A stretch of 64,000 nucleotides of DNA from an uncultured Alphaproteobacteria bacterium (GCA_947175875.1 CAMWON010000002.1:80357-144356); one strand, 5' to 3'; positions 20,491 through 41,191 are shown, counted from the first letter of the stretch. Numbers and translations: made by a program. The notes: a model not told the origin generated them from the sequence alone.

Positions 20491-22560
20491 ATGCTAGAAA
20501 ATCTTAACGAGGCCCAGCGCGCCGCGGTGGAAACGACCGAAGGGCCGCTGTTGGTGCTGTCGGGGGCGGGAACGGGCAAGACGCGCGTGCTGACGACGCG
20601 CATCGCGCATATTTTGCAAAGCCGCCTGGCCATGCCGTGGCAGGTGCTGGCCCTGACGTTTACGAACAAGGCTGCGAACGAGATGAAGGCGCGCATCGCC
20701 GCGTTTGCCGCGGACGGTGCGTTTGATGCGCGCGATTTGTGGTGCGGAACGTTTCATTCTGTGGCGCTGCGGATTCTGCGCGCGAATGCGGACGCGGCGG
20801 GCCTGCGCCGTGATTTTATCGTATATGGCGACGACGACCAAAAGGCCGTGATAAAAAATATTTTAGCCGCCCTGGGAATGTCAACCAAGACCCCGGCCGA
20901 TTATGTGGAGCAGTTTTCGTCGGTCAAGGACAGGGGGCTGCGCGCGCTGGAATATTCCGACAAGGTGTATGCGGCGTATAACGCGGAACTGGCGCGGTTG
21001 AACGCGGTGGACTTTGGCGACATAATATTAAAAGTGTTGCAGTTGTTTGATACGCACCCCGAAATCCTCTTGCGGTATCAGAACCAATTCAAATACATCT
21101 TGGTGGACGAGTTTCAGGATACCAACCACGCCCAGATGGAATTTCTGGAAATGCTGACCCGCGGGGCGGAGCGGCCGAACATATGTTGCGTCGGCGATGA
21201 CGACCAGTCCATATATTCATGGCGCGGGGCGGAAATAAAGCACATTTTAAATTTCGACAAAACGTTTGACGCCGCGCGCGTAATCCGGTTGGAGATAAAT
21301 TATCGCAGCACGCCGAATATTTTGGGCGCGGCAAATTCGCTGATACGCCATAACCGCGGAAGACTTGGCAAGGATTTGCGCAGTGCGGATGAAAATACCG
21401 TCGGCGAGCCGGTGTATGTCTTAACCGTCCCCAGCGACTGGGACGAGGCGCGTGTCGTCGCCGACGCTGTCCTGCGCGATGCGGCGGATTTCGGCAAGTT
21501 TGCGGTTTTGATTCGTGCGGGCTCGCTGTCGCGTTTGTTCGAGGAAGAGTTTGCGCGCCGCGGCATTCCGTATCGTTTGATTGGCGCGACCAAGTTTTAC
21601 GACCGTGCGGAAATCAGGGACGCGATTGCGTACATACGCTTGATGGCGTATCCGTTTGACGATATTTCATTTTTGCGCGTAATCGGTCGTCCGCGCCGCG
21701 GTTTTGGCGCGGCGGCGATTGAAAAACTGCGCGGGGCCGGGCCGGATTTGATGTCGGGGCTGATGAATGCGAAACTGTCGGCAAAGCAGAGGGCGGCCGC
21801 CGATGAATTTTTGTCCGCGTTTGATTTCGACTGGTCCGCGATGGCGCCGATGGACGCGGCCAAGACACTTTTGGAGCGCGCGGGCTATTTCAAAATGTGG
21901 CGCGAATCCAAAGACGCCGATGCGTCGGACCGTCTTGCAAATTTGCAGGAATTGATAACCAACGTTATTTCCAAATACGACACAATCGCCGAATTTTTAG
22001 AGCAGGCCGCCCTGATGATGACGGACGACGATGCGGACGCGGCGGATGCCGGTGGCGCGGTATCCATAATGACGATACACGCGGCCAAGGGGTTGGAATT
22101 TGACACCGTGTTTTTGCCGGCCTGGGAGGAGGGGATTTTTCCCAACGAAAAGACCGTGGACGAGGGGGCGCTGGAGGAAGAGCGCAGACTGGCCTATGTG
22201 GCGATAACGCGTGCGCGCGTGCGTGCGGTTATCTTGAACGCAATGTCGCGTCGGTTGTTTGGGGAGCAAAAGTATAATTCGCCCAGTCGCTTTATCACAG
22301 AGATGGACGGCCGGTATCTGGATTTTCAGGGCGGCTCGCCCCGCGGTGCGTATGCGCCGCCGCGCGGTATTGCGACATCTTATACACCGGCGCCGCGTGC
22401 GGCGCGCGCGACGCCGAAAAATTCCGTGGGACGATTGGTGTCGCATGCCGATATGGGGCGGGGCGTTGTTATCGAAGACGGTGGCGAGATATTGACCGTC
22501 GCGTTCAAAAGCCGCGGAATAAAAAAGGTCGCGCGCGGCTATCTGACATTTGAGTCTTAA
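20491..22560 (+). CDS. uvrD: UvrD/Rep-family ATP-dependent DNA helicase
   Basis: MLENLNEAQRAAV...GPLLVLSGAGTGKTRVLTTRIAHIL (Walker A/motif I); DEFQDTN (motif II); QNYRST-like NYRSTPNIL; VSIMTIHAAKGLEFDTVFL (motif V/VI). The 20320 ORF start would overlap the dnaQ start, so the ATG at 20491 is preferred. A tattataat -10 lies in the divergent promoter region. Confidence 0.8.
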   Translation: MLENLNEAQRAAVETTEGPLLVLSGAGTGKTRVLTTRIAHILQSRLAMPWQVLALTFTNKAANEMKARIAAFAADGAFDARDLWCGTFHSVALRILRANADAAGLRRDFIVYGDDDQKAVIKNILAALGMSTKTPADYVEQFSSVKDRGLRALEYSDKVYAAYNAELARLNAVDFGDIILKVLQLFDTHPEILLRYQNQFKYILVDEFQDTNHAQMEFLEMLTRGAERPNICCVGDDDQSIYSWRGAEIKHILNFDKTFDAARVIRLEINYRSTPNILGAANSLIRHNRGRLGKDLRSADENTVGEPVYVLTVPSDWDEARVVADAVLRDAADFGKFAVLIRAGSLSRLFEEEFARRGIPYRLIGATKFYDRAEIRDAIAYIRLMAYPFDDISFLRVIGRPRRGFGAAAIEKLRGAGPDLMSGLMNAKLSAKQRAAADEFLSAFDFDWSAMAPMDAAKTLLERAGYFKMWRESKDADASDRLANLQELITNVISKYDTIAEFLEQAALMMTDDDADAADAGGAVSIMTIHAAKGLEFDTVFLPAWEEGIFPNEKTVDEGALEEERRLAYVAITRARVRAVILNAMSRRLFGEQKYNSPSRFITEMDGRYLDFQGGSPRGAYAPPRGIATSYTPAPRAARATPKNSVGRLVSHADMGRGVVIEDGGEILTVAFKSRGIKKVARGYLTFES

Positions 22561-23873
22561 GACGATTTCTTGCTGTCTTTGTAAATTTTCCAATATTTTT
22601 TCGCCTGGGCCTGCATGTTCTTGGCCAGTTTCGTGACGTCTTTGCCGAACTGCTGGCCCAGCGAGTCGTCAACACTGCCGCCCAAGTCTTTTGCCAGCTG
22701 CAGCGCCTTGTCGGCCAGGTATGCGACCAGACATCCGATAATCAGCGTTATCATAAATCCATCGTTGTCGATTGACGGGACGCTGGACGCCAGGTTCGCG
22801 TCCACCACGCCGGACAGTATCGCCGCGCACACCGCGACAACAATCGACAGTGATACGAAATAAATTGCGGCGTTTATGAATCTGTTTATCTGCGTGGTCA
22901 AACTTTCCGTTTTGAACAACCCAAGGAATCCGTTGAATATTGTTCCGGCGATTCCCTTGTACGACGTCTTGCCGACTGTTTCCGCAATCGCCGTGAACGG
23001 CAGCATGAATATTGTCAAAAACAGGTCTGCAATCACGCCCAGCGCCATCAACGCAAACTTCCATATGTTTATCAAAAATATTACAATAAATACGGCGCCG
23101 ATTAGGAATGTGAACATGCTGTGTCCGATGCCGGCCAGCATCCATTTCCACCCGGCGGCGACGGCGGTGTAAAAGAATCCGGACAGTCGCGTCGGCACGC
23201 ACATTATGTCGGCGGCGGCCCGGGCGTCGATTATCGCGTCCGCGGCCATGTGCGTCGCGGCATAGTCACGTATGGCGCCGCATGTGTCGGGCAGTGATGC
23301 GCCGGCGGTTGTTGTCACCGCGTTCAAAATCAAATCCGACATATAGGTGCCCACGGTTATTATCGGGCCCGCGACCAGCATAAAAGTTTGGGCCGCACCG
23401 TATTGAATGACGAACACCCATATTGCGATTGTAAAGCCTTTCTTTACGATTCCCTCAATCGATTTTTTTACCTCCACGGCGCCGATAATCATCTGATACG
23501 CCTCGAACCCCATCCAGAACAGGAACGCAACCGCGATGAATATCGTTGCGAAACGCACCAACGAACTGTCCAGAATGCGCCCGATAAGCGTCATTGCGTT
23601 CATGAATGCAAGGCCGATTTTAGCCTCGACCGGGACATAGTCCGCAACCAGCTGATTTTGAAATTCGGATTGGAAAAAATTTATATCCTCGGCCAATTCG
23701 CCGGTAAAGGCCTCTTTGTTATGGTCGGTCGCCCACACGCCATAGTCGCCGATGTCGCCGGTTGCGCCCGGCACGTTGCCGGCCGCCATTGCGCCGGGCA
23801 TAAGCAGCAAGGCTCCGACGGCGCATATCATTATTTTTGAAAATATTTTTTTCAGCCTCGTCATGTATGTCAT
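22557..23873 (-). CDS. Polytopic inner-membrane protein, VirB6/TrbL-like paralog A (putative)
   Basis: Start taken at MTYMTRLKK, where ATGA overlaps the stop of paralog B. Signal/TM1, a soluble segment of about 70 aa, 6-7 further TM helices and a Lys-rich hydrophilic tail. Same architecture as the four upstream paralogs. Confidence 0.5.
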   Translation of the reverse strand: MTYMTRLKKIFSKIMICAVGALLLMPGAMAAGNVPGATGDIGDYGVWATDHNKEAFTGELAEDINFFQSEFQNQLVADYVPVEAKIGLAFMNAMTLIGRILDSSLVRFATIFIAVAFLFWMGFEAYQMIIGAVEVKKSIEGIVKKGFTIAIWVFVIQYGAAQTFMLVAGPIITVGTYMSDLILNAVTTTAGASLPDTCGAIRDYAATHMAADAIIDARAAADIMCVPTRLSGFFYTAVAAGWKWMLAGIGHSMFTFLIGAVFIVIFLINIWKFALMALGVIADLFLTIFMLPFTAIAETVGKTSYKGIAGTIFNGFLGLFKTESLTTQINRFINAAIYFVSLSIVVAVCAAILSGVVDANLASSVPSIDNDGFMITLIIGCLVAYLADKALQLAKDLGGSVDDSLGQQFGKDVTKLAKNMQAQAKKYWKIYKDSKKSS

Positions 23874-25309
23874 GCCTTTTTGCCAAACGCCTTGGACATG
23901 GCGCCGAATATCTGGGTCGGGGCAGACCATATCTTTTTGCCCAAATCCTTGGTCCATGCGCCAAAGTCAAACTGTTCCTTGCCCGGCGCGGACAGTATCT
24001 TGTCAACGCGCGGCGCCACGGCGTAATAGTACAGCAGGAACAGTCCAATCATTAACATCAGGAAATCCCATCCGTTTGACATAAAGTCGAATGCGCCGGG
24101 ATAGTGTCGCTCAACCTCTGCGCGGCGGGCGGTGAAACAGTTCTTGAACGCGTCCGCGTCCATTTCGCCGTCCGAGAGGGCGACGCGTTCGCAATCTGAG
24201 AACACGCGCATTACGGACAATGTTTGCGCGTCCGGATTTTCCGGTGCGACCCCCATCATCGGCGGCAGTATCGCGCTGTACCCGTCGGCGGGGCCGGGGA
24301 AGAATTCGTCGGCCGCGTACGAGACGGTCGCGTAAATGATAAGAATTTTTAATGTTATTGCGATAATTTGTATGGCGGTTTTAACCAGCATGTTTATCGC
24401 GTTGCCGGTTATGCCCCCGGCCAGCTTCCATGTTTTTTCAAATGCCGCCGCCGCCAGCAGGAACGGCAGGAATATTATTAAAAATACCAATTTGAATACA
24501 ACCGACAAAATCTGAAAGAACAGGTCGAACCCGATAATCAAAAACATTATCACCAGCGCCAGTCCCGCCAGCCATGTGAACAGGCCGCCGCCCATGCCCA
24601 GCCATGCGTAATTCATCAATGCAAATCCGCCCGCGGCGCCCGCCAGCATCACGCTGTTCAAATTTCCGATAACGCACATGAACGGCGCCATTACCGGGTT
24701 TAATATATCCGCCGAATCCGCCGCCGCGGTTTCCAGCGCGCGGCATTGCGAGCCCTGGGTTGTGCCGGTCGCCGCCATTGACAGTTCGGCGCCCACAAAC
24801 ATTACGGGCGTGATTGTTATGTTGGCGACTGTTTTTAACGCGGTTGTCCCGCCCATGCCCAGTGCGCCGATAAACACGCCGACGAACATTATGCGCGCGC
24901 CCTGGCGCCATACTTTGTCGAACCATGCCTGAAATTCTAGTTTCTTTTCAGACGTGTCCAAAGTGGACGTTTTCTGGGCGGCGGCATAGATATGCCGTAT
25001 CGCCTCTATAAACAGGAACAGCCCGAACCCCAGTGCCAGCAGTATCCACAGCGTTTCCACTATGGCGTTCCAGAACATTTCCGTTGCGCGGCTGATTACC
25101 GCAAACAGCTCCGTTATATACCCGCACATAAAGCAGCCCGATGCGCCGGCGATGTCGTCGGATGCACCGATTGCCGACATGAAATTATCCATGCTGGTGT
25201 ATGTTAAAGCCGCGCCGCCAATCGACGACGACAGGTACCAAATTCCGATACCCAGCGCAATGGCACCCATGATTAAGCGAATGGCAATCATTATTAATTT
25301 CGCCTTCAT
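23870..25309 (-). CDS. Polytopic inner-membrane protein, VirB6/TrbL-like paralog B (putative)
   Basis: 479 aa. The N-terminal CFMCGYITELFAVIS motif is shared with paralogs C and E (CWGCPVFDRLFQVIS, CWSCDMFGAVMATMS). Multiple TM helices and a Lys-rich tail. Start ATGA-overlaps the stop of paralog C. Confidence 0.5.
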   Translation of the reverse strand: MKAKLIMIAIRLIMGAIALGIGIWYLSSSIGGAALTYTSMDNFMSAIGASDDIAGASGCFMCGYITELFAVISRATEMFWNAIVETLWILLALGFGLFLFIEAIRHIYAAAQKTSTLDTSEKKLEFQAWFDKVWRQGARIMFVGVFIGALGMGGTTALKTVANITITPVMFVGAELSMAATGTTQGSQCRALETAAADSADILNPVMAPFMCVIGNLNSVMLAGAAGGFALMNYAWLGMGGGLFTWLAGLALVIMFLIIGFDLFFQILSVVFKLVFLIIFLPFLLAAAAFEKTWKLAGGITGNAINMLVKTAIQIIAITLKILIIYATVSYAADEFFPGPADGYSAILPPMMGVAPENPDAQTLSVMRVFSDCERVALSDGEMDADAFKNCFTARRAEVERHYPGAFDFMSNGWDFLMLMIGLFLLYYYAVAPRVDKILSAPGKEQFDFGAWTKDLGKKIWSAPTQIFGAMSKAFGKKA

Positions 25310-26505
25310 TTTCCACCCGCCTTGTCATCTTTTTTACCGCCGTTTATAATCGTCGCCCCGATTTTTTTCATGGTTTGGGCCGCCGCCGTGGTCAGTTTCA
25401 TCGCGTCGTCGGCCAGCTGTTCGCCCAGTTTGTTATCCGCCGATACGTTGAACGCGCCAAGCACCATGTTCGTGACCTGGGGAATCTGGGAATAGATATA
25501 ATTTAGTACATATACCAGCACAATCGCACTGCCCAGGGTTATCTGTGCCAGATTGTCCTGGTCAAGGTCGGCTTCAAACACGCTGCCGTTTGTAATCAGC
25601 GCCATCAAATCCGCCGTGGATGCACCGGGTGCGGAAAAGAATTTTGCGATTATCACCATTATCACCGTATATGTCAGTACCGCCGCCGCCAGACCAATTA
25701 TGGCGTTTATGACTTTTTTGAACTGGTCCGTTCCGACATTTTTGCCCAGGTTTGCCATCCATTGCGGCGCGTCGGCCCCTTTGAACGAGACCAGTGTTAA
25801 CGACAACGGAAAGAAAAATGCAAAGAAAGTCATTGCGATAATCACGTCCGCAAAGTAAAAGCAGAACCGTACGAACAGCTTGAAAAATCCATAGAACAGG
25901 TACAGTCCCACAAAGAACATTATTATATGTTTTATCAATGCGCCGATGCCCAGTAATGCATCCCAAGAAAATGCGTTATTCATTACAACGATGCCCAGTT
26001 TCATATAGGCCTGGAACTGGGTTATCGTGGTTTTCATAATCAGAATTATCGTATCGCGCAGGGCGGGGCGATAGAATCCGTCGTCGGACATCTGCATCGG
26101 CTGATAGGTCACTTTTTCATTAATCGTTTCCGTGTCCATGCGCAGCATGCTTTGCGTGTATATGGCCGTTATCTGGGCGACGGGCTCGAACGTTATCGTT
26201 GTTACAAAACGCGGCAGCCACACGCCCAGCGACAAAAACGCAAACGCCACCAAAGAGTTTATGAATACCGGCCGTATGGATTTTGCATAGAACGGGTCGC
26301 CGTCCGCACCGCCCTTGATGTTTTTCCAGACCGCGGACACCACAAAAAATGCGAACAGTACGCAGAACAGTATCATGCAGAACACGACGAACTTGTCATA
26401 TACCGCGGCGGCGGCCATTGATATCACCTGAAACAGACGGTCAAACACCGGGCAGCCCCAACACTGCACCGCGCCGTCTATGATAGGGTTCATTAGCTCG
26501 TTCAT
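25306..26505 (-). CDS. Polytopic inner-membrane protein, VirB6/TrbL-like paralog C (putative)
   Basis: Start at MNELMNPIIDGAVQCWGC, where ATGA overlaps the stop of paralog D. N-terminal amphipathic segment then a TM bundle, as in VirB6 (F..F..L...I then TM1). Gly/Lys-rich C-tail. Confidence 0.5.
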   Translation of the reverse strand: MNELMNPIIDGAVQCWGCPVFDRLFQVISMAAAAVYDKFVVFCMILFCVLFAFFVVSAVWKNIKGGADGDPFYAKSIRPVFINSLVAFAFLSLGVWLPRFVTTITFEPVAQITAIYTQSMLRMDTETINEKVTYQPMQMSDDGFYRPALRDTIILIMKTTITQFQAYMKLGIVVMNNAFSWDALLGIGALIKHIIMFFVGLYLFYGFFKLFVRFCFYFADVIIAMTFFAFFFPLSLTLVSFKGADAPQWMANLGKNVGTDQFKKVINAIIGLAAAVLTYTVIMVIIAKFFSAPGASTADLMALITNGSVFEADLDQDNLAQITLGSAIVLVYVLNYIYSQIPQVTNMVLGAFNVSADNKLGEQLADDAMKLTTAAAQTMKKIGATIINGGKKDDKAGGK

Positions 26506-27794
26506 TTCTTTTTCTTTATCCAGCCTGCGGCCCGACCGATTGACTTGCCCCAGTTTTTGGCGCCGCTCCATGTCTTTTTCGCGTCGCCTGTCACCTGGGT
26601 GTAGAGCTTGTCGCTGGCCGGGGAATACATTTTTAAGCGCTCGCGCGTTAGGTCAAATATGCGCAGCATTAAATAAAACGTCATTATCGCGGACAGCCAC
26701 AGTATCGAATGCTCGCCAAATCCCATGGCGTGGTTTGCCACCTGGGGGACGTTGGATGCGGCACTGCCGCCGGCGGCGACAACGAACACGGAACTGTTCC
26801 AGTTGAACAGGGCGCGCACAATCGCGACGTTTATCGTTAAAATAAACGCGCATGCAATCATTGTTATCACCAGGGACTGCAGCGCCTTGGTAATTCCGGA
26901 AAATGCCGGCCATATGTCGAACCATTTGTCCGGGTTCTTGGGCTTTACGACCCATGTCAAGACCTGGAACGGGTACAGAATCAGCGCCATTCCAAATTCA
27001 AATATCGCCTGAATAATCAGCAGCGCCATAAACAGATTACACCCGACAAACGCCGTCACAATCAATATGCCCGAGACCAGATTCATAAAGTCTTCGCCGC
27101 CGTGCGGTATTAGTGTTATCAGTCCGCGCAGCCCCCGGTGTATAAAATCAAATCCGCGCTTTATCATCTGGTTGTTCGTGTGGCTGATGTCGGCGATTGG
27201 CTGGGTTAAAAATTCACAGCTGCGCTCCGATATCCATTCCTTTTCCAGAATGTCCGGCGGGCATTCGACCGGCGCGGCGGCCGATGCCGCGATGCCGCCC
27301 GTGTTTATTCCGTCGGTGATTGCGCGCGTATAGATTGCACCGAATTCCAGAAACGGATTGACCAGCCATTCCGTCACATATACCGGTTTTATCTGCAATA
27401 AAACCACCGCCGCGATTATTGCGCGCAGGCCGGGCTTTAACATGTTCTGGGCGATGGTCATGCTGTCCGCCTTGCCGGATGCCATTTCGCCGCCGCCGGA
27501 AAATCCAAAGAACGCGACCCATTTTGCGGGGAAATACATTTTCACCAGATACAGGCCCATCGATATCCCCAGAAAGCCCCATATTAAAATGTATATGATG
27601 CCGTCGCCGTTTCCGACAAAGAATTCATATCCGCCCGTTGCGACCGCCATGAACGCGTCCAGCACCATCGGCACGAACGGCGCCAAATTAAAGCTGTCGA
27701 CGATGCCCCAGTCGGCATGCGCCGCGCACGGCGCCATAAGTGCGGCAAAAAACAGCGCGGCCGACAAAATTTTTTTTATTCTGGTCATATACAT
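26502..27794 (-). CDS. Polytopic inner-membrane protein, VirB6/TrbL-like paralog D (putative)
   Basis: 430 aa; signal peptide MYMTRIKKILSAALFFAALMAPCAAHA; periplasmic segment, TM bundle and KKKK tail. First gene of the four-gene minus-strand run. Confidence 0.5.
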   Translation of the reverse strand: MYMTRIKKILSAALFFAALMAPCAAHADWGIVDSFNLAPFVPMVLDAFMAVATGGYEFFVGNGDGIIYILIWGFLGISMGLYLVKMYFPAKWVAFFGFSGGGEMASGKADSMTIAQNMLKPGLRAIIAAVVLLQIKPVYVTEWLVNPFLEFGAIYTRAITDGINTGGIAASAAAPVECPPDILEKEWISERSCEFLTQPIADISHTNNQMIKRGFDFIHRGLRGLITLIPHGGEDFMNLVSGILIVTAFVGCNLFMALLIIQAIFEFGMALILYPFQVLTWVVKPKNPDKWFDIWPAFSGITKALQSLVITMIACAFILTINVAIVRALFNWNSSVFVVAAGGSAASNVPQVANHAMGFGEHSILWLSAIMTFYLMLRIFDLTRERLKMYSPASDKLYTQVTGDAKKTWSGAKNWGKSIGRAAGWIKKKK

Positions 27795-27817
27795 ATATAT
27801 TTATTGTTTTCAATTAT

Positions 27818-27841
27818 ATCACATTTGAGGGAAAATGTGAT
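27818..27841. promoter_or_regulatory. Perfect palindrome ATCACATTT-n6-AAATGTGAT in the 60-bp divergent intergenic region between paralogs D and E; candidate operator
   Basis: 9-bp arms with a 6-bp spacer, centred in an AT-rich divergent promoter region (27795-27854). Confidence 0.45.
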
Positions 27842-27854
27842 ATACTTAAAAGCG

Positions 27855-29150
27855 ATGGGGCGCCTAAAAAAATTTTGGATAGTGTTTTTGTCGTTTCTGC
27901 CGCTGTCGGCGGGGGCGGTGGCGCCGTTTGTCGTGGGCGGCATCGCCGGGGCGGTCGGAATTGCGGGCTTTTCAATATTTAGAAGTACGTCGCCCGTCAA
28001 CATGGCGGACGCGCTGTCGTTTTTTTCCAGCTGCTGGTCGTGCGACATGTTCGGCGCCGTTATGGCGACAATGTCGAATTTATTGCCAAAGGCGTACGAT
28101 GCGATTGCGGGCGTCGTGATACCGTTTGCGGCGGCGCTGTCGGCGATATGGTTCGCGTGGAAGATTTTTTCAGGATTTTTAAACGCCAAGATTGACGACC
28201 CGTGGTCCGTCACCGGTGCGTTCGGAACGCATCTGATAAAGCTGGCGGCGGTATGTGCATTGCTGATGGCGCCACTGCCGCGGCTGATAAGCGATATTGT
28301 TATTCAGCCGATATTTACTGTCGGCCTGTCGGTAAATCATATCGCGGCCGACATGGCGGGCGAGGGGAGGTTCAACGAATGCGTCGTCGCAACCGCACTG
28401 GCCGATCCGGTTGTGGTGGATGCGAACGCGGCGGCGGCGGGCGCGTTTTCGCCGTATCTGCGCCACAACCTGGCGTGCGAGGTTGGAAATGTACACCAGA
28501 TGACGGGCCTGGGCATGACGGTTGGATGGACCATGATGAACATGGCGTTTAATTCCAAGTACATGCACAAGATTATGTGGGGCGTGCCGATTTTCCCAAA
28601 TGTCCCGATTTTCTTTTGCGGTCTAATGATAATAGTGCTGTTCTTTTTCGCATTGCTGCCGATACCGATATATTTTCTGGAGATATTTATCACACTGGCG
28701 ATGGATTTGATAATGCTGCCGCTGATGCTGCTGGGGTGGCTGTTCAAGGGGTGGGCCATATTCCCCCAGGGCGGCCGCACGATTAAACAGATGATAGACG
28801 ACGTGATAAAGGGCACGGTCGGCATCGCGATGACGGGCGTGTTTTTGACGTTCTCGATAATGTTTTTGAACGCGGTGTTCGGAAACTGGGGCGGGGCGAC
28901 GCGGTTGGCGGTGGCGCTGGAGAAAAACGATTCGATGTTACTGATGGACGGCCTGTTGATGCGCAACGACAGTATTGTCACAATTATCCTTATGGGGATT
29001 TTCATTGCGATGTTCATGAACATGATTCCCGCGCTGGTCAAGACTTTGTTTAGCATATCGATATCCGACAAGTATTATGAAACAACGAAAAAGAACATAA
29101 ACATAGTATGGGGAAACATGAAAAAATGGTACGCCGCGTTAAAAAAATAA
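27855..29150 (+). CDS. Polytopic inner-membrane protein, VirB6/TrbL-like paralog E (putative), divergent from A-D
   Basis: 431 aa from MGRLKKFWIVFLSFLPLSAGAVA (signal). CWSC motif, then Trp-rich periplasmic loop, 6+ TM helices and a Lys-rich C-terminus. Confidence 0.5.
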   Translation: MGRLKKFWIVFLSFLPLSAGAVAPFVVGGIAGAVGIAGFSIFRSTSPVNMADALSFFSSCWSCDMFGAVMATMSNLLPKAYDAIAGVVIPFAAALSAIWFAWKIFSGFLNAKIDDPWSVTGAFGTHLIKLAAVCALLMAPLPRLISDIVIQPIFTVGLSVNHIAADMAGEGRFNECVVATALADPVVVDANAAAAGAFSPYLRHNLACEVGNVHQMTGLGMTVGWTMMNMAFNSKYMHKIMWGVPIFPNVPIFFCGLMIIVLFFFALLPIPIYFLEIFITLAMDLIMLPLMLLGWLFKGWAIFPQGGRTIKQMIDDVIKGTVGIAMTGVFLTFSIMFLNAVFGNWGGATRLAVALEKNDSMLLMDGLLMRNDSIVTIILMGIFIAMFMNMIPALVKTLFSISISDKYYETTKKNINIVWGNMKKWYAALKK

Positions 29151-34006: not shown

Positions 34007-35890
34007 ATGGCTGAAAAATTTAGAAAGATTGTGAACGCGCCGCACAAGGCATTCGGACGCGCGCGCAAAAATATCGCAAAGATGACGCCGACAACTAAAA
34101 AGGGCAAGGCGGTGCGCGCCGCCGGCGTGGCGATGACGGGGATGTTTCAATTTCTGCTGTGGGCGCTGAAATACGCGGCGCTGGACAATCATGCGACGCG
34201 CGCGATGGAACGGGGCTTTGGAAACATGACCGTCGGCAAAAATAAGGACGGAAAAGATAAAAAGCTGTCCGCGTTTGCGAAAAAGTATCCGAATCTGTCG
34301 TCGCATATGCTGTATTACATGATGCTGGGGGCGGCGGCAATCGCCACGCCGCATGCGTATGACGCGTTGACCAACGAGGGGGAGGAAAACGACAAAATCG
34401 AAAGCATGGCGGAAATTCCGTTCGGCCAGCCGGGGACATACGGCGCATATCTGGACCGCATGCGTTCGATAACGCCGCTGTTGATTGCGGACCTGATTGC
34501 AAAAGAGGGCGTTCATATGGACGACCAGGGACGCCATACGCCGTACAAGGATTCCAACGGAATACCGACAATCGGATTCGGCTCTACCGTTCTAAAGGAC
34601 GGCAGCAAGGTCACAATGAAAACACCGCCCATTTCAACCGAGGAGGCGTACGAGCTGGCGCGGTGGCATCTGGAGCAGGGCGAGACTTATTTCGTTATGT
34701 ACTGTTATGACGTGGCGATGGAAAATGTGAACATCAACACCACCAACGAGGCGTTCGGAATGGCCTCTATCGTTTATAATGCGTACTCAAAGTTAATTGA
34801 AAATCCAAAGGACACGTCGCATCAAAAGCGCTTTGAAAAATTGCGCGAAATATATGACCAGTACGGCCTGGCGACGCCCGATTCGTTGATTGTTGATGCT
34901 TTCGCGCAGTATCCGGTAAAGGACATGCGCAGCTTTGGCGAAAAGTGGCTGGGCGGGGCGCCCGTGCAGACAACGGCGAACATGCTGGGGAACTTTCTGG
35001 CGGACGGACGCGGAATGTACTGGCGCCGCTGGCTGGAGGCGGGAATGCTGACCGGCGATATCACGCCAGAGATGATGCTGGATTGTCCGGCAAACGGAAT
35101 GTACGAATTTTTTAAGGTCATGAAAGAAAAGAAAAGCGCGTTCTTTATCGGCGACGGCGAAAACCGCCGCGTCAACAAGGAGACGTATGCAAGGTTTAAA
35201 GAATGGCTGGCCAACCCTGTGAACGAACGCGGCGAGCGCTTGGGCGAAAAGAATTTCCCGCGTGTTCGTAATCTGCTGCCGGCCGATGTGCGCGTCATGT
35301 GTGAAAGCGGGCACTGTAAATTGGGCGACGTTGAATTTATCGCCCAGTTCACCGCCACCCCCGCCCAGCAGGAGGCCGAGACCGCATCATATGTAATCGG
35401 ATATGACGAACAGTATCGCCAGGCGGTCGGCGCATTCCGCGCGGGCGATTATGACGGCGCACTGGCCCAGTATCTGAAAATGGCGGAGGAATATCCGAAC
35501 AACGCCTTGATTCACAACGACCTGGCGGCGACGTACAACCAGCTGGGGCGCTATGACGATGCGATTAAACATGCGCGCATCATCATAAACGAAATCGGCG
35601 ACAAGAGCCAGTACGGTGCCGCCCAGTACAACGCCGGATTCGCGTACGAACAAAAGGGCGATTTGCAAAAGGCGCTGGCGAATTATAAACTGGCGCTGGC
35701 CAACGGGAACAGACGCGTGCAAAAAGACATAACGCGCGTGTCACAGCAATTGAAGTCACAGCAGAAGGGGCGCGGTAAAAAATCGGCCAAGACCGCATAT
35801 GAGCGTGGTGCGAAAAAGCTTGGAAACAATGCACATAGCGCGGATTTTGATATGTTAAGTGCGACGCATGGCGGCCACGGTATGGCGTAG
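34007..35890 (+). CDS. Membrane-anchored T4-type lysozyme (GH24-like) domain protein with C-terminal TPR repeats
   Basis: One N-terminal TM (AVRAAGVAMTGMFQFLLWAL). KEGVHMDDQGRHTPYKDSNGIPTIGFGST matches the T4 lysozyme catalytic block E11-G...Y18-K-D20....T26-I-G-x-G. C-terminal TPR-like repeats (YPNNALIHNDLAATYNQLGRYDDAIKHARI; YNAGFAYEQKGDLQKALANYKLAL). Confidence 0.6.
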   Translation: MAEKFRKIVNAPHKAFGRARKNIAKMTPTTKKGKAVRAAGVAMTGMFQFLLWALKYAALDNHATRAMERGFGNMTVGKNKDGKDKKLSAFAKKYPNLSSHMLYYMMLGAAAIATPHAYDALTNEGEENDKIESMAEIPFGQPGTYGAYLDRMRSITPLLIADLIAKEGVHMDDQGRHTPYKDSNGIPTIGFGSTVLKDGSKVTMKTPPISTEEAYELARWHLEQGETYFVMYCYDVAMENVNINTTNEAFGMASIVYNAYSKLIENPKDTSHQKRFEKLREIYDQYGLATPDSLIVDAFAQYPVKDMRSFGEKWLGGAPVQTTANMLGNFLADGRGMYWRRWLEAGMLTGDITPEMMLDCPANGMYEFFKVMKEKKSAFFIGDGENRRVNKETYARFKEWLANPVNERGERLGEKNFPRVRNLLPADVRVMCESGHCKLGDVEFIAQFTATPAQQEAETASYVIGYDEQYRQAVGAFRAGDYDGALAQYLKMAEEYPNNALIHNDLAATYNQLGRYDDAIKHARIIINEIGDKSQYGAAQYNAGFAYEQKGDLQKALANYKLALANGNRRVQKDITRVSQQLKSQQKGRGKKSAKTAYERGAKKLGNNAHSADFDMLSATHGGHGMA

Positions 35891-35909
35891 CGGCGGGGGA
35901 TATGCAGAA

Positions 35910-37853
35910 ATGAAAGTGTATGTAAATTACGACGATGCGCGCTGGAGAAAATATAAAATAGATTTCCGGCACATTGCCGCCGCCGCGGGGCCGCGCCGCC
36001 CGGGGGCGGAGGTGTCGATAACATTGGTCGATGACGCGACGATACATCGGCTGAACAAAGAATACCGCGACATGGACAAGCCGACGAACGTTTTGTCGTT
36101 TGAACTGGGCGACGAGATGTTGTTGGGGGATATTTACATATCGCTGGACACGGTTGCGCGCGAGGCGGCGGCGGCCGGCATATCGGTTGCCGAACACACC
36201 GCGCATATGGTTGTGCACGGGATGCTGCACCTGCAGGGGTACGACCATATCCGTGATGACCAGGCCGCGGTCATGGAATCGTGCGAGGTGGAGATTCTTA
36301 AAAAATTGGGAATAAAAAATCCGTATGCGGACGAGGCGCCGTCGCGCGCGCGCGGCATGCGCGGATGGGTGCGCGCGCTGTGCCTGGCGCTGGCCGGGGC
36401 GGCGGCGTCATTCGGTTTTGCGCCGTTTCATCTGTGGCCGGTGACAATGCTGGCGATTGGGGCGGCATACTGGATTTTGACGTCCGCACCGCGCGCGGGC
36501 GTTGCACGGACGTTTCTGCGCGCCGCGCCGTTCGGTGCGGCATACGGCGTCGCCATGTTTTGGTGGGCGCTTAGCTCCATATACGTTGTGCCCGAACTGG
36601 CGCGTCAGTTTGCAATTTGGACCGTGCCGGGATTGCTGGGGCTGGGGCTGGCCGGTGCGCTGGTGTTTTCGATTCCGTTTGTCGCGGCGACGCGCGCGCG
36701 CGGCGCATCGCGCATATTTGTGTTTGCAGGCGTATGGACGGCGGTGCTGTGGGCGCGTGAATGGATGTTTACCGGATTTCCGTGGAATCCGATTGCGAAC
36801 ATCATGTTGCCCGTGTCGGTAATCGCAAATTCAATGGCGTTGTTCGGGGCGCTGGGGTTGACGTTTGTTCTTGTCGGAATCATTGCGGGCGCGGTTGAAA
36901 TTATGCGTGATAAAAAATGCGCTATGTGCTGGATTTCGTGGCTTGCGTTCATTTTGATGTTGTGCGGTGGCACTATGTACGGACGGCGTAATATTTATAA
37001 GTCGGATGCTATGCCGGATGCGCCAGGGCCACTGGTCCGCGTGGTGCAGCCGGCGACGTCCCAGGACCAAAAAATGTCTTATTCGCGCGCCGACGCCGTT
37101 GCGCGTGCAGAGCGTAATGTGCGAAATCTGTTGGCGCTGGGGGCGGGGGGCGACGGTGCGCGGCCGGATTTGATTGTTTATCCGGAAACGACGTATCCGT
37201 TTGTCATAACCGACGACGACATGCCTTTTTCAAAGATTTTGGATACAAACGTTATTTTGGGCGCGACGTCGTATCGTGACGGGCGGCTGTACAATTCCAT
37301 GATTGTGGCGGACAGGGCGGGGCGCGTCGTGCATGCATATGACAAGGCGCATCTGGTGCCGTTCGGCGAATACGGTCCGCTTGGGATAATGCCGTCGCCG
37401 GCCAATCTGGCCAGCGGCACGGGGCGGGTCGCGCTGGATATCGACGCGGGTGACGGACGCTTTGTTTTTGCGCCGGCGATATGTTATGAAATTATTTTCT
37501 CCGATTCGCTTATCCCGGCCGGCGTCACGCCGAACGCGATAATAAACATTACCAATGACACATGGTTTGGGCGCACGCCCGGCACGTACCAGCATCTGGA
37601 CATGGTGCGCCGATATGCAATCGAGTCCGGCGTGCCGGTTATCCGTGCGAATTATTCCGGAATCAGCGCGTTTGTGGCGCCAGACGGCCGTGTGACGTCA
37701 ATGCTGCCCGTGGGGCAGACGGGCGTTTTGGACGGACGCGTGAACGGGGCGCACATGACGGCGTATCGCGCACTTGGGCGCGACGCATGGATTTTGATAA
37801 TTTTGATTGTGGCGTCCGTCGGCGCGGCGGCGGGCGCGCGGCGTCGCGATTAA
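35910..37853 (+). CDS. Single in-frame ORF fusing a YbeY endoribonuclease domain with an apolipoprotein N-acyltransferase (Lnt) domain
   Basis: N-terminal MKVYVNYDD...HGMLHLQGYDH (YbeY H3xH5xH metal site). From about 36355, MRGWVRALCLALAGAAASFGFAPF... carries Lnt TM helices and the CN-hydrolase domain (E...K...C triad region ICYEIIF). No stop codon separates the two. The upstream extension to 35859 overlaps the preceding gene, so the ATG at 35910 is preferred. Confidence 0.6.
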   Translation: MKVYVNYDDARWRKYKIDFRHIAAAAGPRRPGAEVSITLVDDATIHRLNKEYRDMDKPTNVLSFELGDEMLLGDIYISLDTVAREAAAAGISVAEHTAHMVVHGMLHLQGYDHIRDDQAAVMESCEVEILKKLGIKNPYADEAPSRARGMRGWVRALCLALAGAAASFGFAPFHLWPVTMLAIGAAYWILTSAPRAGVARTFLRAAPFGAAYGVAMFWWALSSIYVVPELARQFAIWTVPGLLGLGLAGALVFSIPFVAATRARGASRIFVFAGVWTAVLWAREWMFTGFPWNPIANIMLPVSVIANSMALFGALGLTFVLVGIIAGAVEIMRDKKCAMCWISWLAFILMLCGGTMYGRRNIYKSDAMPDAPGPLVRVVQPATSQDQKMSYSRADAVARAERNVRNLLALGAGGDGARPDLIVYPETTYPFVITDDDMPFSKILDTNVILGATSYRDGRLYNSMIVADRAGRVVHAYDKAHLVPFGEYGPLGIMPSPANLASGTGRVALDIDAGDGRFVFAPAICYEIIFSDSLIPAGVTPNAIINITNDTWFGRTPGTYQHLDMVRRYAIESGVPVIRANYSGISAFVAPDGRVTSMLPVGQTGVLDGRVNGAHMTAYRALGRDAWILIILIVASVGAAAGARRRD

Positions 37854-38047
37854 ATTTTGTTTTGCAGAATCCACACGCGGATTGCCGACGACAGATTGCG
37901 CGTTCCGCGCGCCGAATCTATGTCGCCGATTATTGCGGCCACTGCGCGACCGCGCGTCCGTGCGATTTCACGCAGGGCCGTGATAAATTCAGGCTCTATT
38001 GAAACGCTGGTCTGGTGGCCGGATAAAGATACTGATAATTTTTTCAT
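37850..38047 (-). CDS. Small ribbon-helix-helix protein (RHH_4-like, alphaproteobacterial family)
   Basis: MKKLSVSLSGHQTSVSIEPEFITALREIARTRGRAVAAIIGDIDSARGTRNLSSAIRVWIL matches the SVxLxGHxTSVSLEPEFWxAL...NLSSALRVxxL pattern of RHH_4 proteins. Confidence 0.5.
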   Translation of the reverse strand: MKKLSVSLSGHQTSVSIEPEFITALREIARTRGRAVAAIIGDIDSARGTRNLSSAIRVWILQNKI

Positions 38048-38054
38048 TTTGTCC

Positions 38055-38489
38055 CTATAACTTGCCCGCCGCCAGACAGTCCGTCATGGCGCGGTACATG
38101 TCGTCGTATTTTCGCAGTATGCGCAGCGACAGATTGTCCAGCATATAGAAGGCGCCGAATGTGTCGAACGCAAAAAAGAACAAATCATTGCGTCCGAAAA
38201 TCGTTTTCCCGTACATTGATGCGATATGCGCCATGTCTCGGTTGACGTCAACGATTGACGGGACGGGATGCGTGGTGCCGCGCTGAATCTCGGCCGGGCC
38301 AAAAATGTATCCCGCGCCGTTTATGATTCCGCCGGTGACGGCGAACAGTTCCTGCAGGGCTATCGGCAGCATGGCCGCCCGCATCCCCTGCAACAACAGG
38401 TTTGTCGTCGCGATATCGCGTGCGGGGCGGGGGGCGGTTATTTCCATGCCGCGTGCGCGCAGTGTTGAAATAAATTCGTCGCGTGTCAT
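38055..38489 (-). CDS. Hypothetical protein (144 aa)
   Basis: ORF in an operon context 8 bp upstream of the RHH gene. No recognised motif. Confidence 0.45.
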   Translation of the reverse strand: MTRDEFISTLRARGMEITAPRPARDIATTNLLLQGMRAAMLPIALQELFAVTGGIINGAGYIFGPAEIQRGTTHPVPSIVDVNRDMAHIASMYGKTIFGRNDLFFFAFDTFGAFYMLDNLSLRILRKYDDMYRAMTDCLAAGKL

Positions 38490-38507
38490 TTTTGTGCCGC
38501 CTTTGGT

Positions 38508-39014
38508 TTATTCCATGCCCCGGCTTGTCGCAATCTGGGCCGCAATCTGGGACAGGCGGTCTTCTGTTGCGTTGCCGCCGTCGCCGCCGCCGCCGGTATG
38601 CGCGGGTATGTATATTTTTTTTGCAGGCGCGGGCAGCCATACGGTGTCATGGCCCGTCTGGCCGATAATGAATCTGTCAATGTTTTGCGAGTGCGGAAAT
38701 GTTGCGCACATGAACATGTTTTCAGGGGATATTTCGCCCCCCCACGCCATCGGCGTGCGCATGCGAATTGACATGTTTTTCGGAATTGCCGCGCCCGTTA
38801 CCAGGGCCATGAATTCATCCTGGCTTAAATTCATAAAGGCCAGTTCTTCGACAGAGTCCGTTAAACTTTGCATAAAGCGGTGGCGGGCGGTGCGATACCG
38901 CTGGAACCAGTCGGCGGGAACCTGATGCGGCACGGGACGCACCGCCACCAGCGGCATGTCATCCATGCCAAGGTCCATTATGATTTTTTCGGCCGATGCC
39001 TGGCTTAGCTGCAT
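38508..39014 (-). CDS. Hypothetical protein (168 aa)
   Basis: ORF whose start overlaps the stop of the upstream membrane-protein gene at 39014. Gly-rich C-terminal segment (HTGGGGDGGNATEDR). No recognised motif. Confidence 0.45.
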   Translation of the reverse strand: MQLSQASAEKIIMDLGMDDMPLVAVRPVPHQVPADWFQRYRTARHRFMQSLTDSVEELAFMNLSQDEFMALVTGAAIPKNMSIRMRTPMAWGGEISPENMFMCATFPHSQNIDRFIIGQTGHDTVWLPAPAKKIYIPAHTGGGGDGGNATEDRLSQIAAQIATSRGME

Positions 39015-39913
39015 TATGTTTTATCCATATAGTTTATGACGGTGTCGATATATTCCGAATACGCGTCAAAGTTTTCCCGGCCGTCCGCATCTTCGGGCGG
39101 GGTGTTTTTATGTGCCGCCATGTATTCGGCCAGTGCGTCTGTATCCGGGAATGTTAAAATATTGTTGTCGGATACCGCGCCGGCGGGTGCGATTATAAAT
39201 CCATAAATGTTTATCTGTATGTCGTCAAGGGTGTCGGAAAACACGGTGCCCAATCGTTCCATTGCCGCGGCCAAGGGTGCCTGGTCGATGCCGACGCCGC
39301 CCATCCACAGTGTTTCGGATGTGCCGATGGCAAATACCGCCGGCTTAAAGTTTCCGATTTGCGGACTGCGCTTTACGCTGTATCCGGCGCGGTCAAAGAT
39401 ATCGCGCAGGTCGTCAAAATTTAGCGTGTTTGCCGCGGGGCCGTGCGGCGGCGCCGGTGTCACGGTCGGTGTGGTGGTGGTTGCCGGTTGGAGCGATTGT
39501 GCCGCGGGCGGCGTGATGCGGGGCGGGCGCCGCATTTGTGACGCGGCCGGGCGCGGTGCGGCCGGTGCAATCGGTGTGTCCGCGGCGGGGGTCGGTTCGG
39601 GGGTGACGGTCGGCGTTGTCACGGCGGCGGTCTTGTTCCGGGCGCGCCCGATGCCGATGCGCCGGCGTAAAATTCCCTTTGGACGGATAAGTATGTAAAG
39701 AACGGCAATGGTAATTACGATTGCGCTGGTCAGCGATATATAGAATGCCGGGCGAATTGGTGTCTGGGATGCTTGCAGATATGCCAGATACTGCCAATGC
39801 TGGGCCGAGAAGATATTAAAACCAAACACGGTGCCCAGCCAGAAACTGGTCCCCAGAGTCGCCGCCAGCAGCCAAAGCAGGCAGATTAAAATACGTTCTA
39901 TTTTTTTGTTCAT
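39014..39913 (-). CDS. Membrane protein (2 N-terminal TM helices, Pro/Thr-rich linker, C-terminal globular domain), unknown function
   Basis: MNKKIERILICLLWLLAATLGTSFWLGTVF... then ~90 aa of TPTVTPEPTPAAD-type linker, then a conserved-looking 130-aa C-terminal domain. First gene of a four-gene minus-strand operon. Confidence 0.5.
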   Translation of the reverse strand: MNKKIERILICLLWLLAATLGTSFWLGTVFGFNIFSAQHWQYLAYLQASQTPIRPAFYISLTSAIVITIAVLYILIRPKGILRRRIGIGRARNKTAAVTTPTVTPEPTPAADTPIAPAAPRPAASQMRRPPRITPPAAQSLQPATTTTPTVTPAPPHGPAANTLNFDDLRDIFDRAGYSVKRSPQIGNFKPAVFAIGTSETLWMGGVGIDQAPLAAAMERLGTVFSDTLDDIQINIYGFIIAPAGAVSDNNILTFPDTDALAEYMAAHKNTPPEDADGRENFDAYSEYIDTVINYMDKT

Positions 39914-39923
39914 TTGTCTTTGA

Positions 39924-40643
39924 TTGTATCATATTTGTGGTAAAGTAAAAAGTATAATGATGGCAACGGACGCTTTTTTTGACGAGGTATCAGCGAATAT
40001 GGCCCTGTGGTGCGAGGGTGGTTTTGAGGCGGGCGAACTGGCGCGTGTGGCGTCTGCGGCGGCGGCCCAGACCATGCCCGTGATATCCGCGCTGCCGGCC
40101 GATGTGCCGATGCTGTGGACGTGGCTGGAAAAGACGACGGTCAGAATTTATTCCCGTTTTTATCTGCCGGCGCGCGGTGCGCGTGACGAAAAGGCGATGT
40201 CCGATTTAACCGCGCGGGTAAACGCCGCCTTTAAACAGGGGGCGCATGGGGCACAAATTTTTATGCGTGCGGCGGATTTGACCGATTTTGCAAATGAAAT
40301 AGGCGCGGTGCGCGACGATTTGTTCTTTAACCGTGAACTGGCTGTCGGCATTGATATCGCAGAGGTCGGACCGTTTGACTGGCCCGCGGTGTTCGATGCG
40401 GTGCGCCGCCTGCGGGCGGGGGCGCTGGTGTTGGTGCTGACGCGTGATAACGGCGACGCGTCTGATTTTGTCGGGCGGCTGTATGCGGCGGTCGGCGCGG
40501 CGGCGAATGCAAAGTGCGATTTGCACTTTGTTTTGGGAAACAGTCCCGTCCGTATAGAGCAGGCGCTGCGAATGGTTCGTGCGGTGCGGCCGGAAAAGGC
40601 CGGCGGGGTCCGCATTTTTCTGCATACCGGGGGCGAGGCATGA
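39924..40643 (+). CDS. Hypothetical protein (239 aa; start uncertain, alternative Met at 39957)
   Basis: ORF divergent from the four-gene operon with an Ala/Arg-rich soluble protein composition. A tataat overlaps the alternative start. Confidence 0.45.
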   Translation: MYHICGKVKSIMMATDAFFDEVSANMALWCEGGFEAGELARVASAAAAQTMPVISALPADVPMLWTWLEKTTVRIYSRFYLPARGARDEKAMSDLTARVNAAFKQGAHGAQIFMRAADLTDFANEIGAVRDDLFFNRELAVGIDIAEVGPFDWPAVFDAVRRLRAGALVLVLTRDNGDASDFVGRLYAAVGAAANAKCDLHFVLGNSPVRIEQALRMVRAVRPEKAGGVRIFLHTGGEA

Positions 40644-41191
40644 AAAAGATAATATCCGTAATCGTATGTTTGTTACCGACCGGCGCGCTGGCGATGGCCG
40701 ACACAAGTGCGCCCGTATATGGTCGTCCGACATTGTACGGCGAATATGAAATAAGCGCCGGTGACGCACGCCGTGCGGCCGCAATGTACGGCATGGTGCC
40801 GAAAAACGCGGCGGAAAAGATGCCGGTAAAACCGAAAAAGGTAATGCCAAAGAAATCTGTGAAAAAGAAAAAGGCGCGCAGTGCGGTCAAGGCGAAACAA
40901 ACCCTGAAAGAGGCGGCGGTCCAAAAGACCGAGCCGGAGGTTATTGTTGTGCCGCCACGCGCGGTTCCCGAAAAGGCGCCGGCGGAGGTGGTAAAGGAAC
41001 CGCTGCCGGAAAAGAAGGCGCCGATGCCGTCGGCAGAGGCGCTGGCGATTGCGGGGGCGGCGGCGACGCCCGACGCGCCGAGCATCGAATCGTTCTGCAC
41101 GCGCCGCGGTACGCTGCAAAAGGATGCGGGCGACAGCGGGTTGATATTGATGCCGGGCCGGCCCGACTTGATGAGCTGCAGCGACAGATAG
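40640..41191 (+). CDS. Secreted Lys/Pro/Ala-rich protein
   Basis: ATG overlaps the upstream stop (ATGA). Signal peptide MKKIISVIVCLLPTGALAMA; KKVMPKKSVKKKKARSAVKAK and PEKAPAEVVKEPLPEKKAP repeats; C-terminal Cys pair. Confidence 0.5.
   Translation: MKKIISVIVCLLPTGALAMADTSAPVYGRPTLYGEYEISAGDARRAAAMYGMVPKNAAEKMPVKPKKVMPKKSVKKKKARSAVKAKQTLKEAAVQKTEPEVIVVPPRAVPEKAPAEVVKEPLPEKKAPMPSAEALAIAGAAATPDAPSIESFCTRRGTLQKDAGDSGLILMPGRPDLMSCSDR

Follow-up and report, generated by a model that had tools for sequence, protein, structure and literature searches.

The 64,000-nucleotide stretch of DNA analysed here (the window) belongs to a gut metagenome-assembled genome (MAG) annotated as "Alphaproteobacteria bacterium" (GCA_947175875.1 CAMWON010000002.1:80357-144356). 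It carries an operon of four minus-strand genes, termed A, B, C and D (37850-39913; locus tags of this region K2L25_04655-04675, with A, B and C annotated as "hypothetical protein"), and a divergently transcribed gene, termed E. The best explanation of this operon, to which we give about an even chance, is that it arose by degeneration from an HNH-DNase toxin associated with secretion and the YrhA/SUKH immunity protein of that toxin, has been inherited vertically and is accompanied by a membrane partner and a ribbon-helix-helix (RHH) regulator. Protein C has the fold of SUKH immunity proteins, protein B is of HNH descent and does not possess the canonical histidines, and A, B and C occur as a set in two distinct gene layouts. 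A present function is proposed below by inference from these features.

The four open reading frames (ORFs) given in a preliminary description of the window were confirmed by ORF listing: gene A (39014-39913, 299 aa), gene B (38508-39014, 168 aa), gene C (38055-38489, 144 aa) and gene D (37850-38047, 65 aa), the last of the operon. The overlap described at 39014 was likewise confirmed, the stop codon of A (TAA) and the start codon of B (ATG) sharing that base (TAATG). B and C are separated by 18 nt and C and D by 7 nt, while the stop codon of D overlaps that of the convergent ybeY-lnt gene by 4 nt. Start/stop overlaps within the operon suggest translational coupling. Its base composition is like that of the surrounding sequence.

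A scan of one genome per species identified 211 species with a relative of B; 80 loci of ~20 kb each were kept, and the window proteins were compared with these by tblastn. The order and orientation of A-B-C-D are identical in all 80 species-level loci, with median gaps of -1, 14 and 2 nt (A-B, B-C and C-D, respectively; the last from 79 loci). Protein lengths are near constant (B 168 aa, with a range of 166-170 aa in all 80 species; C 144 aa; D ~69 aa), and the orthologues of B and C are ~60% identical to the window proteins. As the same four genes occur in the same order and orientation throughout, they are real genes rather than chance ORFs. The operon is single-copy and syntenic in the 80 loci, and its inheritance is vertical and lineage-wide. 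The relatives are labelled Candidatus Enterousia, Rickettsiales or Alphaproteobacteria, and the complete or large assemblies of the group are ~0.7-1 Mb in size. Gene E adjoins A in all 75 loci where E was recovered. The flanking genes gltX, trmB and ybeY-lnt are also mostly syntenic, and where insertions disrupt these flanks (L013, L014, L015, L028, L036, L042, L045, L061, L062 and L076) the E/A-B-C-D block is unbroken. Among more distant MAG lineages, L111-L113 (B only ~26% identical) keep E and A-B-C-D in divergent arrangement beside ybeY-lnt; L109 and L110 keep B-C-D, preceded by a gene matching A marginally (E 0.0098); and L107 keeps only B-C, with D missing. D is attached to C in L109-L113, with gaps between -4 and +18 nt across three divergent lineages. 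The gene-neighbourhood comparison thus upholds the initial proposal of a conserved operon ending in an RHH protein: its genes are co-located in every related genome examined, and none traces to an unrelated housekeeping family.

Proteins B and C had been described as having no recognisable motif, a view that neither of them sustains. For B (cytoplasmic), no direct match was obtained in Pfam and nothing usable in NCBIfam, PADLOC or PHROGs. A chain of sequence matches nonetheless leads from it to HNH (His-Me finger) nucleases. The B profile reaches B-like proteins of a sister gut alphaproteobacterial lineage (22 metagenome loci), and a wider family with them, the best library-wide E values being ~1e-8; the sister B-like proteins match a plasmid-encoded HNH endonuclease at E 8e-17; and the plasmid HNH protein scores 23.6-24.7 bits on Pfam PF01844 (cutoff 21.4). 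Homology of B to recognised HNH proteins is therefore transitive, by way of the sister B-like and plasmid proteins. Comparison by hhalign of the B profile with single plasmid sequences was not significant (E 0.041), as was that of the C profile (E 0.38), and so the link to the plasmid pair rests on the intermediates of the sister lineage; tblastn of window B against the plasmid collection also yielded no match. A structural model of B (predicted local distance difference test score, pLDDT, 84.7) shows a strand-strand-helix core at residues 81-117 (strands 81-85 and 100-104; helix 105-117), with a weak, low-scoring fold match to colicin/pyocin-type HNH DNases; a Foldseek search against the PDB was not significant. 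PDB sequence and profile searches gave noise, apart from a weak alignment to the DNase of pyocin AP41 that was used for motif register only. The weak fold match and the transitive homology together point to colicin/pyocin-type HNH nucleases as the ancestors of B.

The putative beta-beta-alpha core of B (38664-38783, minus strand; aa 78-117) reads P78-x-N80 ... R84-x-R86-x-P88 ... G92 G93 ... N99 ... C103 ... P107 H108 S109 ... D113, of which R84, R86, N99, C103 and D113 are present in 80/80 species and H108 in 64/80. The active-site register was obtained in two steps: the wider family was aligned to pyocin AP41, and the register was then carried to the window subfamily by the family alignment. 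R84 and the hydrophobic residue at position 85 (Met, Phe or Leu) fall at the HH dyad, that is, at the metal-ligand and general-base histidines, while position 109 (Ser in 72 species, Ala in 8) and D113 fall at HxxxH. None of the four canonical positions is His in any of the 80 species, the structural Asn (N99) alone being kept. The sister subfamily reads F-N-V-H-[IL]-K-I-P..YGG....N.....P.H..IH, keeping the first His of the dyad, the Asn and HxxxH, with Ile or Leu at the general-base position; other and intermediate subfamilies are also devoid of these histidines. Because the canonical histidines are replaced in all 80 species, B is probably non-catalytic. It is most likely no longer a classical HNH nuclease, and a remodelled active site is possible. 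B possesses a further conserved element, the Gly-rich C-terminal motif GGxGGNATxDR (38556-38588, minus strand; aa 143-153), located in a loop that precedes the last helix and is modelled with low confidence (pLDDT <50 at aa 142-147). Its residues G146, G147, N148, A149, T150 and R153 are present in 80/80 species, and its G-G ... D is kept across the whole wider family. Two other assignments were considered and dropped: membership of B in the Tox-REHH family, for which no evidence was found, no sequence of that family having been available for comparison, and a relationship of the tail to DUF4169, the usual neighbour of RHH_4 proteins, to which it has no similarity.

Protein C has the SUKH alpha+beta fold and resembles YrhA (SUKH superfamily, SMI1/KNR4); it is taken here as the putative descendant of the immunity partner of B. 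On the YrhA family NF038335 it scores 16.7 bits (E 0.005), which is below the curated NCBIfam cutoff of 55 bits. Its orthologues in the sister lineage score 65.2 and 60.4 bits and those of intermediate lineages 38.2 and 27.4 bits. Since the window protein lies below the cutoff, the sister proteins above it and the intermediates between, C is regarded as a divergent relative of YrhA and is not called a member. PDB sequence and profile searches with C gave noise only, and no match was found in PADLOC or PHROGs. Net charge also differs between the lineages. In the window's lineage the means are -4 for B (acidic) and +1.4 for C (roughly neutral); YrhA-type plasmid proteins have charges of -11 and -17, and the C-like proteins of the sister lineage a mean of -5.9. 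Strong acidity in YrhA proteins is expected of DNase inhibitors that mimic DNA. The trend in charge runs in the same direction as the catalytic loss in B.

The sister lineage provides the second layout. At every sister locus of sufficient length, one or two A-like genes are followed by virD4 (the gene of a type IV secretion coupling protein), a B-like gene and a C-like gene. The VirD4 protein matches Pfam T4SS-DNA_transf (E 2e-58), as well as TraG-D_C and TrwB_AAD_bind. Homology between A and the sister A-like proteins extends from end to end (hhalign probability 98.2%, E 2.7e-14), which makes A, B and C a trio recurring in two layouts (A-B-C-D and A-A'-VirD4-B-C); PDB sequence and profile searches with the sister A-like proteins gave noise only. 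Like that of the window, the sister operon (L082-L101) has its homologues of A, B and C in this relative order, with E values of 1e-10 to 1e-17 for the B profile on the loci and of 1e-9 to 1e-13 for C. It differs in the virD4 gene between A and B and in having neither an RHH_4 gene nor E. Its B-like proteins, unlike window B, carry a Pro/Gln-rich N-terminal extension of 150-230 aa and keep H..N..HxxxH, and its C-like proteins, unlike window C, score as true members of the YrhA family. Two further features of the sister proteins were observed: the B-like proteins have a conserved MWDWS start ahead of the 150-230 Pro/Gln-rich residues, and VirD4 (L082 3128-5464 and the other sister loci) ends in a very long Asp/Glu-rich C-terminal tail. 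As no virD4 gene was found in the window or near the operon in the 80 loci (see below), the link to secretion is indirect for the window's own lineage; ten large window ORFs were also devoid of type IV secretion domains.

Related pairs are encoded on enterobacterial plasmids, for example IncHI2 plasmids (WP_224379386.1/WP_000654195.1) and a plasmid of Kosakonia cowanii (WP_263754826.1/WP_263754825.1), each pair consisting of an HNH endonuclease and a YrhA-family SUKH protein. As in the window, an HNH-type gene is directly followed by a SUKH gene of ~145-170 aa. The plasmid HNH proteins are 33-34% identical to the sister B-like domain (E 8e-17 to 2e-13), with which they share the motif P..W/F.VHHKIP..GG....N.....P.H and a P.P.G.(I/V)Y tail, and the IncHI2 pair adjoins the type IV transfer genes traG/trhH. 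In the plasmid proteins the HH dyad is intact and the Pfam HNH threshold is passed, whereas window B has R-x-R at the dyad and no canonical His. They end just before the region of the GGxGGNATxDR tail of window B, and hence do not have it. Their YrhA partners are strongly acidic, unlike the nearly neutral C of the window, and neither an A-like membrane gene nor an RHH_4 gene accompanies the pairs. Polymorphic toxin systems with colicin/pyocin-type DNase domains (Zhang, Iyer & Aravind 2011, PMC3113570) also combine an HNH toxin, of the beta-beta-alpha-metal fold to which B probably belongs, with an adjacent SUKH immunity protein, and the motif register of pyocin AP41 is shared. These systems differ from the window operon in their secretion or trafficking domains, polymorphic cassettes, patchy distribution and intact catalytic residues: B, at 168 aa, has no N-terminal trafficking or delivery domain, and the locus is single, syntenic and vertically conserved rather than patchy and often multi-copy.

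These likenesses bear on whether B is still an active nuclease toxin, with C as its immunity protein, used on competitors through a type IV or other secretion system encoded elsewhere and with A as a membrane accessory. The pairing of HNH and SUKH/YrhA proteins is the classic layout of nuclease toxin and immunity gene (PMC3113570 and the plasmid pairs), and in the sister lineage the pair is coupled to VirD4 and three candidate metal ligands are still present. B itself keeps invariant R84, R86, N99 and D113, as well as H139 in 77/80 species, and an unusual set of site residues does not preclude activity in divergent HNH toxins (Rehh preprint). Nevertheless, we consider this reading unlikely: in 80/80 species another residue stands at each of the four canonical His positions, B has no delivery domain, and the acidic member of the pair is B and not C, which is the reverse of DNase/immunity pairs. 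The pair is also single-copy, syntenic and vertically inherited at ~60% identity rather than patchy or polymorphic, and no virD4 gene lies nearby in the window or the 80 loci.

Alternatively, the genes might share an operon merely by inherited synteny in a compact, reduced genome, with no joint function. The small genomes of the group (~0.7-1 Mb), the largely syntenic flanks gltX, trmB and ybeY-lnt across the 80 loci, and the occurrence of the D family in another context in Sinorhizobium are all consistent with this. It is nonetheless improbable, as A, B and C recur in the differently arranged virD4 operon of the sister lineage, B and C are adjacent in every context seen, plasmids included, the E/A-B-C-D block stays intact where insertions break its flanks, and start/stop overlaps suggest translational coupling.

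The description of A (39014-39913) as a membrane protein with a Pro/Thr-rich linker agrees with its hydropathy and linker composition. It has two hydrophobic segments (~aa 8-30 and 56-78; Kyte-Doolittle windows >1.6 at aa 5-30 and 53-83), with three Lys/Arg residues before the first and eight in the 19 residues after the second, a positive-inside pattern by which the N terminus and everything past residue 78 are placed in the cytoplasm. A is thus predicted to be anchored by a transmembrane hairpin of N-in/C-in topology, from which a cytoplasmic linker leads to a globular, acidic C-terminal domain. The hairpin (39680-39892, minus strand; aa ~8-78) contains the conserved loop motif FGFNIFS..HWQYL..QA, in which F32, H39, W40, Q47 and A48 are invariant in the alignment. 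The linker comprises 70 residues, 18 of them Pro and 14 Thr, and is variable and unalignable outside a single motif, RPPR(L/I) (39518-39529, minus strand), whose R129 and P130 are invariant and whose P131 and R132 are at least 90% conserved; a similar motif, K-S-Y-K-x-x-R-P, occurs in the sister A-like proteins. The C-terminal cytoplasmic domain, delimited by alignment (39017-39418, minus strand; aa 166-299, 134 residues), carries a net charge of -13 in the window protein and averages -11.8 across 77 orthologues. Orthologues of A were found in 80/80 loci. A had no match in Pfam, NCBIfam, PADLOC, PHROGs or PDB sequences, and a profile search of PDB sequences with its C-terminal domain gave nothing significant. 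A reading of this domain as an inactive NERD or PD-(D/E)xK-like fold was dropped, being a sequence pattern that Pfam did not support.

Protein D (37850-38047) was correctly described as an RHH_4-like DNA-binding protein: it matches Pfam RHH_4 (PF13467) at E 1.4e-20 with 73.5 bits against a gathering cutoff of 25, over profile positions 2-65 of 67. PDB sequence and profile searches with D gave noise only, and a literature search for RHH_4/PF13467 yielded nothing relevant. Among alphaproteobacterial RHH_4 proteins, that of Sinorhizobium meliloti (UIJ93908.1) is 47% identical to D and shares GH.TS...E..F...L..IA ... NLSSA.R; its gene follows sspB and a DUF4169 gene, whereas D closes the A-B-C operon.

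Of the two divergent neighbours that had been described, E stays with the operon and the second, a Lys/Pro-rich secreted protein (40640-41191, plus strand), is not a member of the module, occurring in a minority of loci (L001-L006, L018, L032, L033 and L076 among the 80) and mainly in the closest relatives. The start first assigned to E, TTG 39924, was not borne out. ATG 39957 is the most likely start, the orthologues of 33 species aligning from that position, and gives a protein of 228 aa (39957-40643, plus strand). No Pfam match was found among 33 orthologues of E, nor a PDB profile match, nor anything in NCBIfam, PADLOC or PHROGs. We infer that E is a co-regulated divergent member of the module. 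With this start, an intergenic region of 43 nt (39914-39956) is left between E and A, and this region is nearly identical across ~70 species. Its 30-nt core, CTTTTTACTTTAYCAYAAATATGATAYAAT, has a mean column identity of 93.5% over 30 columns in 32 species with identical spacing; the proteins of species sharing the core are only 40-60% identical. The core is unique in the window, with 0 chance matches expected. An extended -10 element is read on each strand, TATGATACAAT and TGTGATAAAGT; the two stand back to back and together form the palindrome ATCAYA-AA-TATGAT. As these elements lie a few bases from each start codon, the leaders must be very short. A generic consensus promoter scan did not call this region, owing to the weak -35 element. 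The sequence fits no DnaA box, CtrA box or alphaproteobacterial LexA box by inspection, and these were dropped. The region is a candidate operator for D, although binding of D there is a reasonable guess and nothing more.

The preliminary description had also offered the operon as an uncharacterised regulated module such as a stress, defence or envelope system. Its components do derive from families of conflict systems (HNH toxin and SUKH/YrhA immunity protein), but no known defence system was recognised: a search of PADLOC-DB 2.0 with A, B, C, D, E and a neighbouring 183-aa protein (for which Pfam and NCBIfam also yielded nothing usable) gave no match at E <= 0.1, and PHROGs gave none for A, B, C or E and two marginal ones (E ~0.1) for D and the 183-aa protein. 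Both the strictly vertical inheritance, in single copy and in synteny, and the absence of the catalytic residues speak against a defence or toxin cassette of the ordinary kind. For a type II toxin-antitoxin (TA) system in particular, no TA family was matched in Pfam or NCBIfam, the operon is fixed lineage-wide, and D is dispensable in related operons. A type II TA or anti-phage module, in which D would be the RHH antitoxin or regulator and B the toxin, is thus highly improbable: RHH proteins are common antitoxins, the operon is small with overlapping genes and a defence role had been proposed for it, yet PADLOC and PHROGs are as stated, the operon is core, syntenic and single-copy lineage-wide, which mobile TA or defence islands are not, its base composition is that of its surroundings, B-C persists without D in the sister operon and in L107, and B does not have the catalytic residues.

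Under the preferred explanation, descent from a secretion-associated toxin-immunity pair, the ancestral arrangement may have comprised B as substrate, C as its immunity protein or chaperone and A as a membrane adaptor, acting with a type IV secretion coupling ATPase. In the window's lineage B would no longer cut DNA and may survive as a binding protein held in complex by C. A, with its hairpin, flexible linker and acidic domain, could tether or receive the B-C complex at the inner face of the membrane, and D may repress both the operon and the divergent gene E from the 43-nt bidirectional promoter. Several observations weigh against this explanation. tblastn with the sister VirD4 finds no homologue anywhere in the window (64 kb) or up to 10 kb from the operon in the 80 loci, so that, over the stretches searched, linkage to type IV secretion is seen in the sister lineage only. 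The inactivity of B is read from a two-step alignment, and B could use other residues (R84, R86 and D113, which are invariant, or H139, present in 77/80 species); according to the Rehh preprint, DNase activity can persist in HNH toxins that are very divergent and have remodelled sites. Finally, the family of D occurs in an unrelated sspB-DUF4169-RHH context in Sinorhizobium, and D is absent from the sister operon; the functional tie of D to A-B-C is putative.

Toxin-immunity pairs are usually fast-evolving weapons of patchy distribution. We tentatively suggest that here a non-catalytic HNH protein, a SUKH protein and a membrane tether might have been domesticated as a fixed core component in a whole order of reduced-genome gut Alphaproteobacteria (the RF32/Enterousia group and relatives), where they could serve a non-conflict role, for example as an adaptor and substrate set of a coupling ATPase or as a membrane-proximal regulatory complex. 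If this is true, the retention of the pair in every genome examined of a ~0.7-1 Mb lineage, despite the lost histidines, would clearly exemplify how a conflict module can be turned to a cellular function. The three-protein set of A, pseudo-HNH B and SUKH C, wired to VirD4 in the sister lineage, is moreover a concrete lead on the secretion or host-interaction biology of uncultured gut Alphaproteobacteria, and the 43-nt promoter, the GGxGGNATxDR tail and the RPPR(L/I) motif are ready targets for experiments.

A number of observations concern the genes surrounding the operon and its distant relatives. The convergent neighbour (35859-37853, plus strand) is a single ORF fusing RNase YbeY, of rRNA maturation (Pfam E 1e-34), to apolipoprotein N-acyltransferase Lnt (TIGR00546, E 8e-66). 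In the distant MAGs L111-L113 the two are likewise called as one fused gene (596-612 aa). The GTG start listed for the window gene overlaps the gene upstream, and the true start may be located further downstream. The gene at 34007-35890 (plus strand) encodes a 627-aa protein with a phage-type lysozyme domain (PF00959) and C-terminal TPR repeats, and its synteny with ybeY-lnt extends to most of the 80 loci. In three of the distant lineages, B-C has genes of pilus or type II secretion type no more than a few kb away (TcpQ, secretin, PilO, T2SSF and a weak prepilin-like N terminus; L109 13031-16512, L107 5704-7818 and L112 1-500), which may be coincidence. Elsewhere in the window, at 22557-29150, five genes of 420-480 aa form a run, four of them on the minus strand and the fifth on the plus strand; none has a Pfam match and some are weakly paralogous to one another. 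Homologues of these genes (E 1e-13 to 1e-16) are located directly upstream of B-C-D in L109 and L110.

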